A stretch of DNA of 32,000 nucleotides from Telmatocola sphagniphila. Lineage in GTDB: Bacteria; Planctomycetota; Planctomycetia; Gemmatales; Gemmataceae. Location of the stretch: assembly GCF_018398935.1 (NCBI RefSeq), contig NZ_CP074694.1:660001-692000 (forward strand), read 5' to 3'. Both the position numbers and the translations under genes were made by a program. Below the pieces are notes generated by a model. The model saw nothing but the letters and a program-made list of their open reading frames with translations. It was not told the DNA's origin and did no database searches. Positions 4,833 to 29,395 of the stretch are shown piece after piece (the stretch's first letter is position 1; each line of letters starts with the position of its first letter).

Positions 4833-4866
4833 AGCGATCCCGTTTTTGGGATCGCTTCATTTTTTG
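4833..4866 (+). terminator. Rho-independent terminator of the PPIase gene
   Basis: AGCGATCCC (4833-4841), loop GTTTTT, GGGATCGCT (4848-4856), then TCATTTTTT. Confidence 0.8.
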
Positions 4867-13585: not shown

Positions 13586-13610
13586 TCTCGACCTCGCCCC
13601 GGTCCATTCA

Positions 13611-13657
13611 AACGAAAAGAGCCGCAGTATCCACTGCGGCTCTTTTCGTTTTTATTT
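13611..13657. terminator. Bidirectional terminator between the convergent PEGA and peptidase genes
   Basis: Perfect 18-bp inverted repeat AACGAAAAGAGCCGCAGT (13611-13628) / ACTGCGGCTCTTTTCGTT (13633-13650) with loop ATCC, followed by TTTATTT. Confidence 0.8.
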
Positions 13658-18128: not shown

Positions 18129-18437
18129 TATTGGTATTATCCCTGTCTTTTTGCTTGACATCATCTGAAATTACCACGATGATTTCAATGTATTGGGAAG
18201 CTCTAGGCAGTAGTAGGTGGGCTTTTCTGATGGTATTTGGTGGTTTTCCGAAGCTGTTTGGTGGTTTTCCGTAGAAAGTTTTCGATTATTCGAAAACGTT
18301 TTTGGCCATGGAGTCGAGCTTAGCGAGCGGACTTTAAGTGCTGAAATCGGAACGGCTTGTGTAGGACGGGCCGGGATGCAAAATTCAACCGCTGGAAAGC
18401 GGCCGGGGACTATTTCCCTTTTTTTTGACCCAGGCCG

Positions 18438-18466
18438 TTGACACTTTTGACCAGCGACCATAAAGT
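18438..18466 (+). promoter_or_regulatory. Candidate 16S rRNA promoter
   Basis: Consensus -35 TTGACA (18438-18443), a 17-nt spacer, then TAAAGT (18461-18466). A T8 tract (18420-18427) resembling an UP element precedes it. It lies about 320 nt upstream of the mature 16S 5' end. Confidence 0.45.
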
Positions 18467-18786: not shown

Positions 18787-20300
<1,514 letters not shown>

Positions 20301-20401: not shown

Positions 20402-20421
20402 TGCTTAGATATAAACAAGAA

Positions 20422-20451
20422 CCCCGCTGAGTAAAATCAGCGGGGTTTTTT
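20422..20451 (+). terminator. Rho-independent terminator directly after the 16S trailer
   Basis: CCCCGCTGA (20422-20430), loop GTAAAA, TCAGCGGGG (20437-20445), then TTTTTT (20446-20451). Confidence 0.8.
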
Positions 20452-20461
20452 GTTGTACCTG

Positions 20462-21158
20462 CCCAACCAAAACATTTTTAAATCCCCCACTGATCCCCGG
20501 ATTTTATCCCAGTATCTAAGCGGTACCCCTCCTGGGTTATTTTGTGAATGAAATCCGTGGAATTGTGGAATTGAAAACCGAGAGGGGTTTCAGAAATCAG
20601 CACCGGGTCAGCGCAGCGTCACCCGGTGTATAAATTGATGAAGTTTGTCAAATTTCCACCCGGCCAAATAGATCCCTCGAATCAAATACCTCCCCCGGAT
20701 ATCATCCGGGGCTTTAGTCTGTAACCCCTCCGGGGTTTATTTGCATCGTGAAAACCCAGAGGGGTTTCAGAAATCAGCACCGGGTTAGCGCAGCGTCACC
20801 CGGTGTATTAATTGATGAAGTTTGTCAAATTTCCACCCGGCCAAATAGTTCCCTCGGATCAAATAGCTCCCCGGATTTCATCCGGGGCTTTAGTCTGTAA
20901 CCCCTCCGGGGTTTATTTGCATCGTGTAACCCCGGAGGGGTTTCAGAAATCAGCACCGGGTCAGCGCAGCGTCACCCGGTGTATAAATTGATGAAGTTTG
21001 TCAAATTTCCACCCGGCCAAATAGTTCCCTCGGATCAAATACCTCCCCCGGATTTCATCCGGGGCTTTAGTCTGTAACCCCTCCGGGGATTATTTGCATC
21101 GTGAAACCCCGGAGGGGTTTCAGAAATCAGCACCGGGTCAGCGCAGCGTCACCCGGTG
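20462..21158. repeat. Non-coding tandem array of a ~177-bp unit: one degenerate copy, three full copies and a 45-bp partial copy
   Basis: The anchor GGGGTTTCAGAAATCAGCACCGGG recurs at 20584, 20761, 20937 and 21114, giving periods of 177, 176 and 177. Full copies are about 95% identical by eye. 20462-20583 is a diverged partial copy with an insertion. No ORF of 60 aa or more lies in this region. Confidence 0.9.
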
Positions 21159-21247
21159 AACTAATATGCCCCATCCGGTGAACTAATATGCCCCACCCGG
21201 TGAACTAATATGCCGCACCCGGTGAACTAATATGCCCCACCCGTTGG
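21150..21247. repeat. Four exactly phased 22-bp direct repeats (iteron-like) plus a 10-nt partial fifth
   Basis: The copies are CACCCGGTGAACTAATATGCCC (21150), CATCCGGTGAACTAATATGCCC (21172), CACCCGGTGAACTAATATGCCG (21194) and CACCCGGTGAACTAATATGCCC (21216), then CACCCGTTGG. Confidence 0.9.
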
Positions 21248-21297
21248 ATTAAAAAGATTGATAAGGATCACTCACTCGAAATAAAATCCAATCACCC

Positions 21298-23085
21298 CTA
21301 CATCCGCTCTACCGTCCGAATCGCTAACAGATTCAATACCAGGCTGATTGTCCGGGCTGTTAAATCGCACAGTACCAACCGACTATTTTTCAGTTCATCG
21401 CTACTGGCTTTCAGCACGCTACAATTCGGCGAGGCATAAAAACTTGCAAGAGCCTTAGAAACTTCCCATAAATAGCTGGTCAAAGCATGCGGGGCATATT
21501 CGGCCTCGGCGGTAATCAGAGCTTCATCCAGTCTTAAGAGTTGCAAGGCGAGAGCTCTTTCTTGCGGTTCGCCGAGAATCACCGGATGATTTTGCTTCTG
21601 AAATGCCAGTTCCTCCACTTCCGATTCCCGGAAAATGCTCCGGCACCGGGCATAGGCGTACTGGTTGTATGTTGCCGTATTACCATCGGTTGCCAGCATT
21701 TTCTCGTAGCTGAAAACATAATCACTGGTCCGATTCTGACTCAGATCCGCGTACTTCACAGCTCCCAGGCCAACAACTTCTGCAATTTCCTGAATCTCGG
21801 CATCGCTTAACTCAGGTACCCGAAAGCCGCGTTCTTCTCGTTCGGACCGACTCGCTTCGTATTTCTCCCGACCCTGGCGAATCGCTTCGTCCAACAGTTC
21901 ATTCAGTTCGATCGGTTCGCCGGAGCGCGTTTTGATCGGTCGTTTATCTTCTCCCAGCACCGAACCAAATGAAACGTGCGTCAGTTCGATGTTTGGGTAA
22001 CCCCAGCGTTTGGCGGCGGTAAAAAGTTTCTTGAAATGATCGCCCTGCCGAAAATCGACTACGTAAAGGCAGCAATCCGCTCGGAAATGCTCGACCCGGT
22101 ACTTGATCGTTGCCAGATCAGTGGTGGTATAAGTGTAGGCCCCATCGCTCTTTCGGATCAGCGATACCGATTTCTCGTTCTCGGCGATAACAATTGCCCC
22201 TTGGCTTTCCTGGGCGATTCCTTTTTTCAGGCAATCCGCTACCACATCGGCCAGCATCGGGTTGTAGAAGCTCTCTCCGAGTTCATGATCGAAATGAACG
22301 TCGAGTCTTCGATAAATAATGTGGACTTCTTCCAGACACGCCGGCATGAACTCTTTCCAGAGCCGATTGTTCTCAGGGTCTCCTTGATGGAGTTTCACGG
22401 TCTCCTGTCGATAAGCCTGGACGACCGGATTGGCCGTATCTCCCTCGTCTTCATCGCTTTTCGCTTCGCCCAGTTTGCGGACGAGTTTGTAGAGTCGAGC
22501 TAACTCACTCACCGGGTCTTTTTCGTAAGCCGCCTTATCCAAGTGATTCTTGTAACCATACAGTAGCATGCCGAACTGAGTGCCCCAGTCGCCCAGGTGG
22601 TTGTCCGCAATCACCTGATGTCCCCGAAATTCCAGCAGCCGATGCAACGCTTCCCCGATGATTGTGCTGCGTAAATGTCCGACGTGCAATGGTTTAGCTA
22701 CGTTCGGACCCGAGTAATCGATGACGATTTTTCGCGGCGAGGAAGCTCGGGAAGCCCCTAGTCGATCATCCGAGCGAATCTGGGACAGGGCTTGAGCCAG
22801 AAACGCATCCGACAACTTCAGATTGATGAATCCCGGACCGGCCAAGTTGGCCGAGGCGATCAGGCCGTCTTTGGGCAATTCCGAGATGATTTCCGAGGCC
22901 AATTCTGGCGATTTTTTATTGAGCGTTTTTGCCAGCGGCATTGCAAAATTGGCTTGATAGTCGGCCAAGTCCGGATTTTGTCCGGGGCGAATCATCCCCA
23001 GATACCCGAGGAGTTTCGATTCGTCCTCGACTCGTTTAGCCAGGATCGGTCGGAATACAGATCGAAGTTGCTCAATCAGGTTCAT
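21298..23085 (-). CDS. argS: Arginine--tRNA ligase
   Basis: 595 aa. The class I HIGH region is KPLHVGHLRSTIIGE. The anticodon-binding C-terminal domain ends in the typical ...RTVERM. Confidence 0.95.
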   Translation of the reverse strand: MNLIEQLRSVFRPILAKRVEDESKLLGYLGMIRPGQNPDLADYQANFAMPLAKTLNKKSPELASEIISELPKDGLIASANLAGPGFINLKLSDAFLAQALSQIRSDDRLGASRASSPRKIVIDYSGPNVAKPLHVGHLRSTIIGEALHRLLEFRGHQVIADNHLGDWGTQFGMLLYGYKNHLDKAAYEKDPVSELARLYKLVRKLGEAKSDEDEGDTANPVVQAYRQETVKLHQGDPENNRLWKEFMPACLEEVHIIYRRLDVHFDHELGESFYNPMLADVVADCLKKGIAQESQGAIVIAENEKSVSLIRKSDGAYTYTTTDLATIKYRVEHFRADCCLYVVDFRQGDHFKKLFTAAKRWGYPNIELTHVSFGSVLGEDKRPIKTRSGEPIELNELLDEAIRQGREKYEASRSEREERGFRVPELSDAEIQEIAEVVGLGAVKYADLSQNRTSDYVFSYEKMLATDGNTATYNQYAYARCRSIFRESEVEELAFQKQNHPVILGEPQERALALQLLRLDEALITAEAEYAPHALTSYLWEVSKALASFYASPNCSVLKASSDELKNSRLVLCDLTARTISLVLNLLAIRTVERM

Positions 23086-23229: not shown

Positions 23230-23727
23230 CTAGTAACGCTCCCAATCCACTTTCGGAGCATCGCTCCAAAGCTCTTCGAGGCGGTAGAAATCGCGCGTTT
23301 CCGGATCGAAGACGTGCACCAGGATATCGGTGTAGTCCTGGATGATCCATTTGCTCGCCTCGTAGCCTTCGATGCCGTGACGTACGTCGCCTTCGGCTTT
23401 CAACACATCGTCGATTTCCTCGGCGATATTGTGGATCTGGCGACGGCTGGCCCCAGTCGTCAGCACGAAGAAATCGTAGAGCGGGTGCGCTCTTCGCATA
23501 TCGAGCACGATGATGTCCTTAGCTTTATTATCGCGGGCACTTCGGGCGCATATGCAAGCCCGTTCAAGAGCACTTTTCAGTGCAGGTTTCGAAATGGGGG
23601 CAGTCAAAGTTTCTGTTGCCAAAGGCCCTCCTTGAATCAATTCAAAGTTCGGAAGGTGGCTTTCGAGCAACGCATTTTCCCAAACACGGTCACTGGCTGA
23701 TTCCACCTCCAGAATATGTGCGGACAT
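23230..23727 (-). CDS. rsfS: Ribosome silencing factor RsfS (iojap family)
   Basis: IVLDMRRAHPLYDFFVLTTGASRRQIHNIAEEI...GYEASKWIIQDYTDILVHVF..E.R.FY.LE.LW is the RsfS core. AAGGAAG lies 8 nt upstream of the ATG at 23727. Confidence 0.85.
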   Translation of the reverse strand: MSAHILEVESASDRVWENALLESHLPNFELIQGGPLATETLTAPISKPALKSALERACICARSARDNKAKDIIVLDMRRAHPLYDFFVLTTGASRRQIHNIAEEIDDVLKAEGDVRHGIEGYEASKWIIQDYTDILVHVFDPETRDFYRLEELWSDAPKVDWERY

Positions 23728-23909
23728 ATATATCTTCCTTTGATCGACGAAAAAGGTCAAGCGGCTTCCGGGGAATTCCCTTGGGAAACACGAATTTTCA
23801 AAAGCTCTTCTACTTTAAAGACAGGACATGTCCTCTCGGGTTCTCGCAAAAATTACCGGACATTCGCAGGTCCGAACGGTATATTCGAACGACATAAGGA
23901 GTTTGAATT

Positions 23910-27133: not shown

Positions 27134-29065
27134 TTACTTGCAGCCGCCGCAAGAAGAGCGACCGCCGAACAGCTTCATTCCGCCGAACAGGCTCTTGTGA
27201 CCACTGACAGGAGCAACAACTCCGCCGCAGCCCGAAACCGTAGCGCCACCGCAGCCGCTGTCGCAACCACTGCTGACCTGAACCTTGACGATTTCTTCGG
27301 TAGCAACCATTTCGGTGTAGGTTTCTTTCTTGCTCTTCTTAACGTCGCTCCAAGTGGTGACATCAACGTCGATGACCTTGTCCACTACCTTGGCAACGTT
27401 AACGGTGTGGGTAGCGGTCTTGGTGACCGGAACGCACTTCTTGGTAACAACTTCCACGTCCTTGGTAACCGGAATCATTTCGACTTCGGTGCGGGTAGCG
27501 GTCTTGGTAACAGGTACGCACTTGTTGACGGTAACATCAACGACCTTCGTCGAAGGAACGCTTTCGTAAACGGTGTTCACACCGGTCTTGGTGACTGCAA
27601 CGCACTTGTTAACGGTGACGTCAACGACTTTCGTCGAAGGAACGTTTTCGTAAACGGTGTTCACGCCGGTCTTGGTGACGGCAACGCACTTGTTAACGGT
27701 GACATCAACGACTTTCGTCGAAGGAACGTTTTCGTAAACGGTGTTCACGCCGGACTTGGTGACGGGAACGCACTTGTTAACGGTGACGTCGACGACCTTA
27801 GTGGAAGGAACGTTTTCGTAAACCGTCTTGGTAGCTGTCATGGTCTTGGCGACGCAATGAGTGACCGGAACCTGAATCGTTTCCGTCATTGCAACTCGTT
27901 CGTAAACGGTGCTGGTGACAGTTTGCGATTCGGTAACGGTTTCGTAGTGTCCGCAAGGAGCCGGGGTAGCACATGCACTGGTGGTAGCGCCGCCGAACAG
28001 TTTGCCACCGAAGAGGCTGTGACCATGGCCCACAGAAGTGGTACCACAGCCACCGCAACCGCCGGTGGTAACCGGGGTGCCGCAACCGGAAGCTGCAACT
28101 GCGGGAGTGCCGCAACCGCCGCAACCGCTCACCGTGGTTGCACAAGGATCAACGGCAACAACCGGAGCTGCCACCCAAACTTTGCGACAAACAGGAACTG
28201 TGTTCGTTACAGTCTTGGGAACGCAGGTGTACTTGGTGACGGTACGAGCTTCCATCGTCGTGACGGGTTCCATTACCGTGTAGGTGTAAGGAACTTGCTT
28301 CGAAACGGTGGTGTACTCGGTTACGGTTCGCTTTTCGACGGAGGGCTGCCATTCGTAAGCGGTGTAAGTGTAAGGAACTTGCTTGGCGACCCGGGTGTAC
28401 TCGGTCACTGTGCGTTTTTCAACGGTGGGCTGAATTTCGTTGACGGTGTAGGTGTAAGGAACTTGCTTGGCGACCCGGGTGTACTCGGTCACTGTGCGTT
28501 TTTCAACGGTCGGTTGAATTTCGTTGACGGTGTAGGTGTAAGGGACTTGCTTAGCGACCTGCGCGTATTCGGTAACCGTCTTCTTTTCGACAACGGCTTG
28601 CCATTCATTGACGGTGTAGGTGTAAGGAACCTGCTTTTCCTTGCGGTCGTAGCTCGTCTGCTTGACGACTTCCTTGACATCGGCCCACTCGTTAACAGTG
28701 TAGGTCGTCGTTTCGGTCTTCGGTTCCCAAACAGTTTCCTTGATGGTCTGCTTCTGCTTGGTCGTCACGGGAACCTTTTCGATATATTCGACGGTTCGTT
28801 CTTTGGTGACAGGCTTGTAGGTGATAACTTTCTGGTCAATCCAGGTTGGAGCAGGTGCTGCAACAGGACCGCAGGGAGCAGCGGCGCCGCAGGGCGATGC
28901 AACTGCGCCACCGCAACCGCTAGCAGCTACCTGACCGCAGGGGTCAGCAGCAACACCGCAACCCGAGGCAACGGCGCCACAAGATTTCTTGTGGGTAGCC
29001 ATTACGGGAGCCGTCAACAGCATGGCAGCAGTGAAGGCAGCGGCCGAACGAAAACCTTTCAACAT
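27134..29065 (-). CDS. Secreted Cys/Gly-rich repeat protein with YTV-type repeats (643 aa), a candidate planctomycete envelope protein
   Basis: AGGGAGA lies 6 nt upstream of the ATG at 29065. The signal peptide is MLKGFRSAAAFTAAMLLTAPVMA. There are two blocks of 28-aa repeats and three CG-rich linkers. All six differences between near-identical repeat copies are synonymous in this frame but non-synonymous in the antisense ORF. A terminator follows on this strand. Confidence 0.75.
   Translation of the reverse strand: MLKGFRSAAAFTAAMLLTAPVMATHKKSCGAVASGCGVAADPCGQVAASGCGGAVASPCGAAAPCGPVAAPAPTWIDQKVITYKPVTKERTVEYIEKVPVTTKQKQTIKETVWEPKTETTTYTVNEWADVKEVVKQTSYDRKEKQVPYTYTVNEWQAVVEKKTVTEYAQVAKQVPYTYTVNEIQPTVEKRTVTEYTRVAKQVPYTYTVNEIQPTVEKRTVTEYTRVAKQVPYTYTAYEWQPSVEKRTVTEYTTVSKQVPYTYTVMEPVTTMEARTVTKYTCVPKTVTNTVPVCRKVWVAAPVVAVDPCATTVSGCGGCGTPAVAASGCGTPVTTGGCGGCGTTSVGHGHSLFGGKLFGGATTSACATPAPCGHYETVTESQTVTSTVYERVAMTETIQVPVTHCVAKTMTATKTVYENVPSTKVVDVTVNKCVPVTKSGVNTVYENVPSTKVVDVTVNKCVAVTKTGVNTVYENVPSTKVVDVTVNKCVAVTKTGVNTVYESVPSTKVVDVTVNKCVPVTKTATRTEVEMIPVTKDVEVVTKKCVPVTKTATHTVNVAKVVDKVIDVDVTTWSDVKKSKKETYTEMVATEEIVKVQVSSGCDSGCGGATVSGCGGVVAPVSGHKSLFGGMKLFGGRSSCGGCK
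27410..27913 (-). repeat. Intragenic 84-bp (28-aa) tandem repeats, block B, six copies
   Basis: The consensus is NTVYENVPSTKVVDVTVNKCVAVTKTGV. The four central copies (27494-27829) are near-identical, and two adjacent copies differ at 3 of 84 nt. Confidence 0.9.
28214..28717 (-). repeat. Intragenic 84-bp (28-aa) tandem repeats, block A (YTYTV type), six copies
   Basis: The consensus is QVPYTYTVNEIQPTVEKRTVTEYTRVAK. The copies at 28382-28465 and 28466-28549 encode identical peptides and differ at 3 of 84 nt. Confidence 0.9.
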
Positions 29066-29395
29066 ACGTCGTCTCCCTCTTTCCGCCGAAAATAAATGAT
29101 GTGAAATGTAAGGTTTATTCATGGCGGAGCCTTACAAATCATGTCCTATCTTATTGCGGCTAAATGTTGACCGCTGAAGCATCATGCTAAACATGACCTT
29201 TTGGGAAGGCCACGCGTAATAAGAAGAATACACAATCCTGGTAAAATGGAAAGAGAAAATCGTCTTTATCGGGGCTTTCACTCTAACGAGTAGGAGTTAG
29301 GTAAAATCAACTTAGGAATCTTTGCCATTCTCAATAGAATCGCTTAAGTCAACATATTCCCACCAATCAGTCCCTTTTTGGAAAGGCAGGCTCTC

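Follow-up and report, generated by a model that had tools for sequence, protein, structure and literature searches.

The spacer between the 16S rRNA gene and the convergent arginine--tRNA ligase gene argS of Telmatocola sphagniphila, a member of the Planctomycetota that lives in peat bogs, is filled with tandemly repeated and strongly palindromic DNA. It lies in a stretch of 32,000 nt (contig NZ_CP074694.1, positions 660,001 to 692,000), hereafter the window, the first letter of which is position 1 in all coordinates given below. Repeat-derived DNA begins right after the 16S terminator, so that no unique sequence is present anywhere in 20455-21243, and the spacer from this terminator to the 54 nt that come after the argS stop codon, about 790 bp, is wholly non-coding duplicated DNA. 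Our favored, still tentative interpretation is that of a locus-restricted minisatellite that arose by iterated slippage or unequal crossing-over and that acts, at most, as a 3' hairpin barrier similar to the repetitive extragenic palindromes (REPs) and the bacterial interspersed mosaic elements (BIMEs).

A 177-bp array of palindromic modules

Tandem Repeats Finder (TRF) reports a period of 177 bp with 3.3 copies, 96% matches and no indels at 20582-21158 (score 1077), and a repeat search gives start-to-start distances of 177 and 176 between the units. The tandem unit of about 177 bp described in the initial annotation, which was made from the letters and a list of open reading frames (ORFs), is thus borne out, and the unit identity that had been put at about 95% by eye is 95.5% when measured for each pair of the three full units (8 differences per pair, all equidistant). 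The older, diverged copy that had been placed at 20462-20583 is genuine, with a local alignment score of 25 against a shuffle maximum of 18.5, but it is shorter than proposed: about 50 nt (20493-20542) align at about 75% identity. The longest ORF of the array comprises 59 aa, in line with the earlier statement that no ORF of 60 aa or more is present. A stop codon occurs in all six frames within each 177-bp unit, and a coding repeat (177 = 3 x 59) was therefore rejected.

Each unit carries three dyads, found where the initial annotation had placed them, except that its coordinates for dyad (iii) were 1 nt too low. Dyad (i), CACCGGGT-N12-ACCCGGTG, is present four times, at 20601, 20778, 20954 and 21131, with 0 matches in dinucleotide-preserving shuffles of the window, and dyad (ii), CCCCGGAT-N3-ATCCGGGG, three times, at 20693, 20869 and 21046. 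The arms of dyad (iii) start at 20723/20752, 20899/20928 and 21076/21105; the 15-nt arm has 7 matches against 0.07 expected, and the GGGGAT mismatch reported for the left arm in unit 3 was seen again. These 700 bp hold 10 of the 17 perfect hairpins with stems of at least 8 bp in the entire window.

The architecture becomes clearer when the phase of the repeat is redrawn as four quasi-palindromic modules of about 113 bp, each with the order (ii)-(iii)L-(iii)R-(i) and with 64-bp linkers between them, the leftmost module being decayed. Hairpins (ii) and (i) are mirror-symmetric about (iii)L/(iii)R and have related stems (CCCCGGAT vs CACCGGGT), the inverted ends of the module form 32-nt arms that are 81% complementary, and the right edge of the last module (21158) coincides with the exact end of the 177-bp array. 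A covariance model built from the three good modules recovers the decayed fourth one at 20495-20628 (66.5 bits, E 8.6e-11) and also matches the reverse strand of the modules at 56-63 bits, which demonstrates pseudo-twofold symmetry. The parts of this array, none of which is assigned to a strand, and of the second array that follows it are:

20455-20494: linker remnant, diverged second half, putatively assigned from a weak MAFFT alignment with the units
20495-20628: module M0, the oldest copy (covariance model 66.5 bits), its left half with hairpins (ii) and (iii)L decayed
20629-20692: linker 1, 64 bp, A+T-richer and non-palindromic, with one copy of an 18-bp duplication and a degenerate CACCCGG
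20693-20805: module M1, 113 bp (covariance model 139 bits on the + strand, 56.5 bits on the - strand)
20806-20868: linker 2, 63 bp after a 1-nt deletion, with a weak sigma-70-like match TTGTCA-16-AATAGT at 20822-20849
20869-20981: module M2, the best preserved (covariance model 145 bits on the + strand, 63 bits on the - strand)
20982-21045: linker 3, 64 bp, with a weak promoter-like match TTGTCA-16-AATAGT at 20998-21025
21046-21158: module M3, the last copy (covariance model 143 bits on the + strand, 61 bits on the - strand)
21150-21243: second tandem array, unit CACCCGGTGAACTAATATGCCC, 22 bp x 4.3 copies, 94% match, TRF score 174

The right half of M0 consists of a degenerate (iii)R and an intact dyad (i), which are part of unit 1, and for its decayed hairpins (ii) and (iii)L the predicted energies are -2.0 and -4.1 kcal/mol. 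M1 contains, in this order, hairpin (ii), the long (iii)L/(iii)R hairpin with a degenerate right arm, and hairpin (i). In M2, dyad (iii) is a perfect pair of 15-nt arms (20899-20913 and 20928-20942), and the whole module folds at -64.3 kcal/mol on the + strand and -65.3 kcal/mol on the - strand, with z about -9. Dyad (i) was also considered as a diverged 16S terminator and rejected: the positions correspond in an alignment, but only about 4 of the 11 stem bases match.

Duplication at this locus is nested. The 22-bp unit pattern of the second array has 4 matches against 0 expected, and the first nonamer of this array is the right arm of the last dyad (i). An 18-bp internal duplication is found by TRF in each 177-bp unit, and M0 holds an 8-bp tandem duplication, GTGGAATT x 2.1, at 20557-20573, which brings the tandem duplications called by this program to four scales (8, 18, 22 and 177 bp) within about 800 bp. 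The three smaller ones were absent from the description in the initial annotation.

The palindromic nonamer CACCSGGTG recurs through both arrays, with 12 sites (at most one mismatch) in 645 bp, against 6 one-mismatch sites and no exact site in the other 31 kb of the window. The spacings are 19, 19, 19 and 19 bp for the pairs inside the modules, followed by 22, 22, 22 and 22 bp at the argS end, where five sites are phased at about two helical turns. These counts and spacings, together with the iteron-like character of the 22-bp array and the double use of the last dyad arm as its first repeat, would suit an array of binding sites for a sequence-specific dimeric protein that, once bound, would block or insulate against RNA polymerase or replication forks, or provide an anchor. 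The proposal of protein sites, already made in the initial annotation, gains slightly from the 12 phased nonamers; but their multiplicity follows automatically from tandem duplication and is not independent evidence of protein binding. Furthermore, the window has no exact site elsewhere and no gene for a DNA-binding protein next to the array, and no similarity to plasmid or phage iterons or centromeres was found, and we therefore give this alternative only a small chance. A more specific version, in which the array is a bacterial counterpart of the terminator and fork-barrier arrays of eukaryotic rRNA genes (Sal-box/TTF-I, Reb1, Fob1), with a dedicated protein on the 12 CACCSGGTG sites acting as a polar roadblock to keep either argS transcription or replication forks out of the 16S gene, appears highly improbable.

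Both outer junctions of the repeated region are supported by two independent Illumina contigs (Logan, run SRR14506984). One of them (153,953 nt) spans the whole 16S gene, the terminator and the diverged copy and ends at about 20611, and the other begins at about 21129 and carries the identical 22-bp array and argS. The contigs end exactly where the repeated k-mers begin, so that the internal copy number comes from the source assembly alone.

Flanking genes, hairpins and transcription

The array is flanked by the following features:

18787-20300, + strand: 16S rRNA gene, full length (Rfam SSU_rRNA_bacteria, 1426 bits)
20420-20452, no strand assigned: 16S terminator, a hairpin at 20420-20447 with an 11-bp G+C-rich stem and a 6-nt loop, then a T-run
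21244-21297, - strand: unique spacer after the argS stop codon, 54 nt, with no convincing terminator hairpin
21298-23085, - strand: argS, arginine--tRNA ligase, 595 aa, 100% identical to the T. sphagniphila ArgS (Pfam tRNA-synt_1d, E 2e-99; DALR_1; Arg_tRNA_synt_N)

This layout agrees with the convergent setting that had been described, the 16S gene being on the + strand and argS on the - strand, and with the placement of the array directly after the 16S terminator: the terminator hairpin ends at 20447, and repeat-derived DNA starts at 20455. The 16S gene stands alone, with no 23S, 5S (Rfam) or tRNA gene within the window, and the passage of an Illumina contig through it without a break suggests a single 16S copy in the genome. 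Its terminator, located about 120 nt downstream of the gene, has a predicted energy of -20.7 kcal/mol on the + strand, where 6 of the 8 nt after the stem are T, and of -19.8 kcal/mol on the - strand, where it is terminator-like too. At the other side, argS is the last gene of a conserved rsfS-argS pair (rsfS at 23230-23760, - strand). The RNA of the 54 nt past the argS stop codon folds no better than shuffled sequence (z = +0.8 to +0.9), which makes dyad (i) of the last module the first strong structure that the argS transcript would meet; given that no credible hairpin precedes the array on this side, the array is likely the 3' zone of argS transcripts.

The other genes nearby are housekeeping ones according to Pfam (glnA, pyk, a DPP-IV-type peptidase, an ABC transporter, glycosyltransferases and others), and no transposase, integrase, regulator or REP-associated tyrosine transposase (RAYT) gene was found with Pfam in the window. 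Several further observations concern the same neighborhood. The best sigma-70-like match of the argS spacer, TTGATA-18-TAAAAT (10 of 12 positions, 21258-21287, + strand), lies just past the 22-bp array, is directed antisense into argS and may be due to chance. Upstream of the 16S gene, a 21-bp tandem repeat (TTTTCCGAAGCTATTTGGTGG, x 2.6) is present at 18216-18271, about 170-220 bp before the strongest promoter-like site of the 16S gene (18438-18466, TTGACA-17-TAAAGT); this repeat may represent upstream activator sites of the rRNA promoter or one more product of slippage close to the gene. Further away, a 662-aa ORF on the - strand (27134-29122) has no Pfam match, a signal-peptide-like N-terminus and Cys/Gly-rich segments. 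It contains two blocks of 28-aa tandem repeats (QVPYTYTVNE; TVYENVPSTKVVDVTVNKCV) encoded by 84/168-nt DNA repeats and is overlapped by a 632-aa antisense ORF, and the Illumina contigs break inside it.

As RNA, dyad (i) is predicted to fold at about -15, dyad (ii) at -13, a single arm of dyad (iii) at -7.6 and the long (iii)L+R hairpin at -33 kcal/mol; taken singly, the dyads are G+C-rich hairpins of 17-28 nt with energies of -7.6 to -15.8 kcal/mol. They thus have the G+C-rich stem-loop of a Rho-independent terminator and lack its U-tract, with T at 1-5 of the 8 nt that follow, whichever strand is read, whereas each of the native terminators at 4833, 13610, 20420 and 27083 is followed by runs of 4-6 T. 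The unit hairpins are not canonical intrinsic terminators. Specifically, the arm that had been likened to one (AACCCCTCCGGGGTT followed by TATTTG) proved to be the weakest hairpin, at -7.6 kcal/mol and with 4 T in the next 8 nt. The interpretation preferred in the initial annotation, a multi-terminator or insulator array that stops rRNA read-through into antisense argS and the reverse, is only weakly supported: 16S transcripts already meet a strong terminator before they would reach the array, and the unit hairpins have no clear T-tracts; a weaker version gains from the lack of a credible argS hairpin before the array. A native reference for the array hairpins is the perfect 42-nt hairpin at 13610-13651, flanked by an A-run and a T-run (AAACGAAAAGAGCCGCAGT…ACTGCGGCTCTTTTCGTTT), a textbook bidirectional terminator between a PEGA-domain gene and a convergent peptidase-like gene.

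An array of structured small RNAs had also been suggested. Modeled on the cyanobacterial NsiR1, for which there is the precedent of 12 tandem nsiR1 copies, each with its own promoter (PMC4030482), such genes would use a promoter in the linker to produce a + strand RNA of about 65 nt that comprises hairpins (ii) and (iii)L and ends in UUUAUUUG. Units 2 and 3 indeed have the sigma-70-like TTGTCA-16-AATAGT some 20 nt upstream of hairpin (ii), and two hairpins with a U-rich end resemble a small RNA. This promoter-like sequence, however, matches at 9 of 12 positions, is lost in unit 1 and belongs to a class that occurs at the chance rate in the region (7 sites vs 5.3 expected), which undercuts the suggestion at its only foothold. 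The candidate terminator is weak (-7.6 kcal/mol), and neither an Rfam match near a family threshold nor conservation in other genomes was found. Among the mismatches of the extended arms, 0 of 6 (by eye) are G-T pairs; the arms are Watson-Crick symmetric, and thus no strand is singled out as a functional RNA. Tandem small-RNA genes are accordingly a very unlikely explanation.

The preferred reading, a minisatellite that at most serves as a hairpin barrier, takes its functional part from E. coli, where the tandem REP cluster REP325 is a partly Rho-dependent attenuator and mRNA stabilizer, and where a REP located between two convergent genes goes along with higher expression of the pair (bioRxiv 10.64898/2026.03.23.713779). 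Located after the 16S terminator and before any argS terminator, the T. sphagniphila array would most likely be transcribed as the 3' end of the argS mRNA. By analogy with REP/BIME clusters, its stable G+C-rich hairpins without U-tracts could pause or attenuate read-through, so that argS transcription would be kept from running antisense into the 16S gene and transcripts leaking through the 16S terminator would be kept from entering argS antisense; the same hairpins might block 3' exonucleases, with the argS mRNA as the beneficiary. On this analogy, a role as barrier or stabilizer for the argS 3' end is plausible.

Copies elsewhere, relatives and selection

Searches with blastn (word size 7) and with the covariance model detected no other copy in the 41 kb made up of the remaining window and a further 9 kb outside it, nor in 88 loci (1.37 Mb) from the PVC group (Planctomycetota/Verrucomicrobiota) and other bacteria; the comparison with related planctomycete DNA that had been recommended in the initial annotation thus yielded no copy of the unit in the PVC-group loci compared. 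The 27-mer GAGGGGTTTCAGAAATCAGCACCGGGT, invariant in all four copies, has 0 exact matches in 596 Gb of GTDB genomes, among which the source genome is perhaps not included. Likewise, a dyad-based pattern and a 24-mer had 0 matches in JGI metagenomes, the dyad (iii) pattern had 0 matches in IMG/VR, and distant-mode blastn gave no match in 72,556 plasmids or in phages. A six-frame pseudo-protein of two units, aimed at spurious ORFs called on dispersed copies, retrieved nothing at E <= 1 among 5.8 billion predicted proteins. In Rfam, only the 16S gene passes the gathering threshold; the best array match reaches 24.3 bits where the family threshold is 100, and relaxing the cut-off to E <= 10 adds only chance-level matches to microRNA, leader and unrelated models.

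The Illumina contigs that flank the array, 154 kb and 242 kb long, are unbroken. An assembly based on a de Bruijn graph with k=31 cannot cross shared k-mers, and hence about 400 kb, which is 6% of the genome, are free of near-identical copies; under a Poisson model, the chance that a randomly placed family of at least 50 such copies would miss these 400 kb is only about 5%. As far as such searches can tell, these results argue against an abundant young dispersed family and are compatible with a small or diverged one.

These data bear most directly on the possibility that the 113-bp module is a selfish element of the type of the miniature inverted-repeat transposable elements (MITEs) or REPINs, present also at other genomic sites, and that the cluster between the 16S gene and argS was tandemly amplified later, as in BIME or NIME. 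The imperfect inverted ends of 32 nt and 81% complementarity and the palindromic build, with two small hairpins inverted as in a REPIN, are as expected for such an element, and REP families are known in Planctomycetes (PMC3733652). Against it stand the lack of a second copy in the 41 kb read, the unbroken flanking Illumina contigs, the absence of the invariant 27-mer from a GTDB collection that may not hold the source genome, and the lack of spurious ORFs from other copies among the 5.8 billion proteins. Moreover, a GTAG tag is missing and CGTC occurs only in the loop of dyad (i), no target-site duplication was seen, and the window holds no transposase or RAYT gene. That all copies share the same 64-bp linker indicates tandem duplication rather than independent insertions. 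An origin of the cluster from a dispersed element consequently seems improbable.

The closest relative available (GCA_043744995.1, a 3.4-kb contig with an ArgS 78% identical) has 625 nt after argS without a tandem repeat or any similarity to the unit. The lack of the array in this contig speaks against protein-binding sites. Directly after argS (2790-2870), the same contig has one large compound hairpin, CCGGAGAG…CTCTCCGG, followed by TTTTCG on the opposite strand, and this hairpin may resemble the ancestral state of the spacer. Among the matches listed, the best ArgS relative in GTDB is 56% identical. In more distant Gemmataceae-like relatives, the rsfS-argS pair is kept and other genes lie downstream, which indicates that the adjacency of the 16S gene and the array is specific to the T. 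sphagniphila lineage.

Long-period non-coding arrays are uncommon, not rare: TRF run on 1.34 Mb of the comparison loci found three others with periods that are not multiples of three. Their periods are 278, 278 and 97 bp (comparison loci L057, 1-599; L070, 7679-8330; L056, 18474-18772), and they come from Verrucomicrobiota (Prosthecobacter, Akkermansia) and Microbulbifer; the pair with the 278-bp period might have a common origin.

Signs of selection are weak overall, as judged from the substitution pattern. Among the three full units there are 12 variable sites, none of which falls into the stems of dyads (i) and (ii), compared with about 2.2 expected (P about 0.09), and both loops vary. Four of the 12 are located in the arms of dyad (iii), and all four weaken the pairing without compensation; the edge copies have likewise decayed without compensatory changes. 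The divergence of 4.5% between the units implies that the array is not brand new.

As to origin, the nested pattern of duplications suggests that an ancestral segment, consisting of a quasi-palindromic module of about 113 bp and a 64-bp linker, was multiplied by repeated slipped-strand mispairing or unequal crossing-over. Hairpin-forming DNA at the place where two convergent transcription units meet is a plausible cause of such instability. The same mechanism could have left neutral junk, that is, a slippage by-product tolerated in a long convergent spacer and of no measurable consequence for transcription, RNA stability or DNA transactions. The nested duplications of several sizes, the decay of the edge copies with no compensatory changes, the nearest relative without the array, the lack of a homologue in any collection searched and the lack of covariation evidence all fit this explanation. 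It has more difficulty with the stems of -13 to -33 kcal/mol in a likely transcribed 3' region, which are expected to affect RNA polymerase or exonucleases as REPs do, and with the persistence of three or more copies at 4.5% divergence, though long identical stretches favor deletion. An entirely neutral array is, in our estimate, unlikely, though by no means negligible.

Several considerations also weigh against the interpretation as a minisatellite with, at most, a barrier role. The invariant stems of dyads (i) and (ii) are compatible with constraint, and the persistence of the copies at 4.5% divergence, despite the proneness of such repeats to recombination, could hint at selection for several copies; equally, multiple copies may be tolerated rather than selected. 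The 22-bp phasing of the palindromic nonamer looks, by its spacing, more like protein sites than like RNA structure. A dispersed family is possible, especially a low-copy one or one with copies more than 10% diverged, the searches having fallen short of the complete 6.59-Mb genome. Finally, the array may not be transcribed at all.

If the interpretation as a locus-restricted minisatellite with a possible barrier role is true, the locus adds one case to a broader pattern, in which minisatellites can grow out of hairpin-rich DNA where convergent genes terminate, and 3' barriers of the REP type can form in place, with no need for a mobile family spread over the genome; this has some relevance to the debated origin of REP/BIME clusters. 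In practical terms, the array would be a good VNTR (variable-number tandem repeat) marker for strain typing in Telmatocola, and it causes short-read assemblies to break at the argS/16S spacer. The importance of the locus would be much greater if a protein turns out to bind the phased CACCSGGTG sites or if the units give rise to small RNAs. To our knowledge, non-coding regulation in Planctomycetes is almost unexplored.

Comparison with known systems

Candidates of several other kinds were rejected. A CRISPR array does not agree with whole 177-bp units that repeat at 95-96% identity, or with 22-bp repeats that abut without spacers; the R''/R' core sites (RYYYAAC and GTTRRRY) that bound each palindrome of an integron attC array are confined to 20461/20467 and 21243/21249, beyond the modules; and the motifs of parS sites and DnaA-box clusters are absent from the modules.

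Plasmid iterons and centromere arrays, of which the F sopC is an example, share with the second array the short direct repeats in four to five copies, the phasing by two helical turns and the palindromic core, and the 22-bp repeats (x 4.3, 94%) are of the phased 17-22 bp kind that characterizes iterons. Unlike these systems, the T. sphagniphila array has a chromosomal setting between housekeeping genes, with no rep or par gene nearby and no match among plasmids. NsiR1 of heterocystous cyanobacteria resembles the 177-bp array in that each of its tandem direct repeats might have room for a promoter, a short structured RNA and a terminator; the NsiR1 repeats, however, have validated promoters and transcripts and are conserved across genera, whereas the promoter-like sites here are at chance level and no conservation was found.

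Among mobile palindromic elements, REPINs and MITEs (ERIC, Correia, RUP and the Neisseria NIME) offer a closer structural parallel: an imperfect palindrome of about 113 bp with inverted ends of about 32 nt, which correspond to the terminal inverted repeats of a MITE, and two small, inversely oriented hairpins that together make one long hairpin of -33 kcal/mol. They differ in that no other copies of the T. sphagniphila module were found, no direct repeat that could represent a target-site duplication flanks the modules, and no cognate transposase is encoded in the window.

The functional analogy is strongest with the E. coli BIMEs and specifically with REP325 (yjdM-yjdN), which likewise consists of tandem G+C-rich hairpins in alternating orientation, separated by linkers, in a 3' intergenic position and without U-tracts. 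In contrast to BIMEs, the array shows no sequence similarity to them, has a unit of 177 bp instead of a REP of about 35 bp, occupies one known locus instead of hundreds, and is made of near-identical tandem duplicates and not of a mosaic of dispersed elements, with no RAYT seen in the window. The dyads are G+C-rich imperfect palindromes of the 20-40 bp kind typical of REPs. A further hallmark of REPs is that the palindrome carries the tetranucleotide GTAG or CGTC at one of its ends (PMC3733652); GTAG is absent from both strands of 20455-21260, and CGTC occurs only in the loop of dyad (i), not at an outer end.

Bacterial VNTRs or minisatellites provide the best match, with which the array shares its intergenic position, its non-coding head-to-tail repeats and its degenerate edge copies. 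VNTR loci such as the mycobacterial MIRU originate by slippage or unequal recombination, and their copy number is expected to vary between strains. MIRU are a dispersed family with about 40 loci per genome, some of them with small ORFs, and in this respect differ from the array described here, which is known from one locus and is strongly palindromic. By category, the array, which lacks the REP end tag, seems to fall outside the REP/BIME class and is classed as a bacterial VNTR or minisatellite, the unit of which is unusually palindromic.

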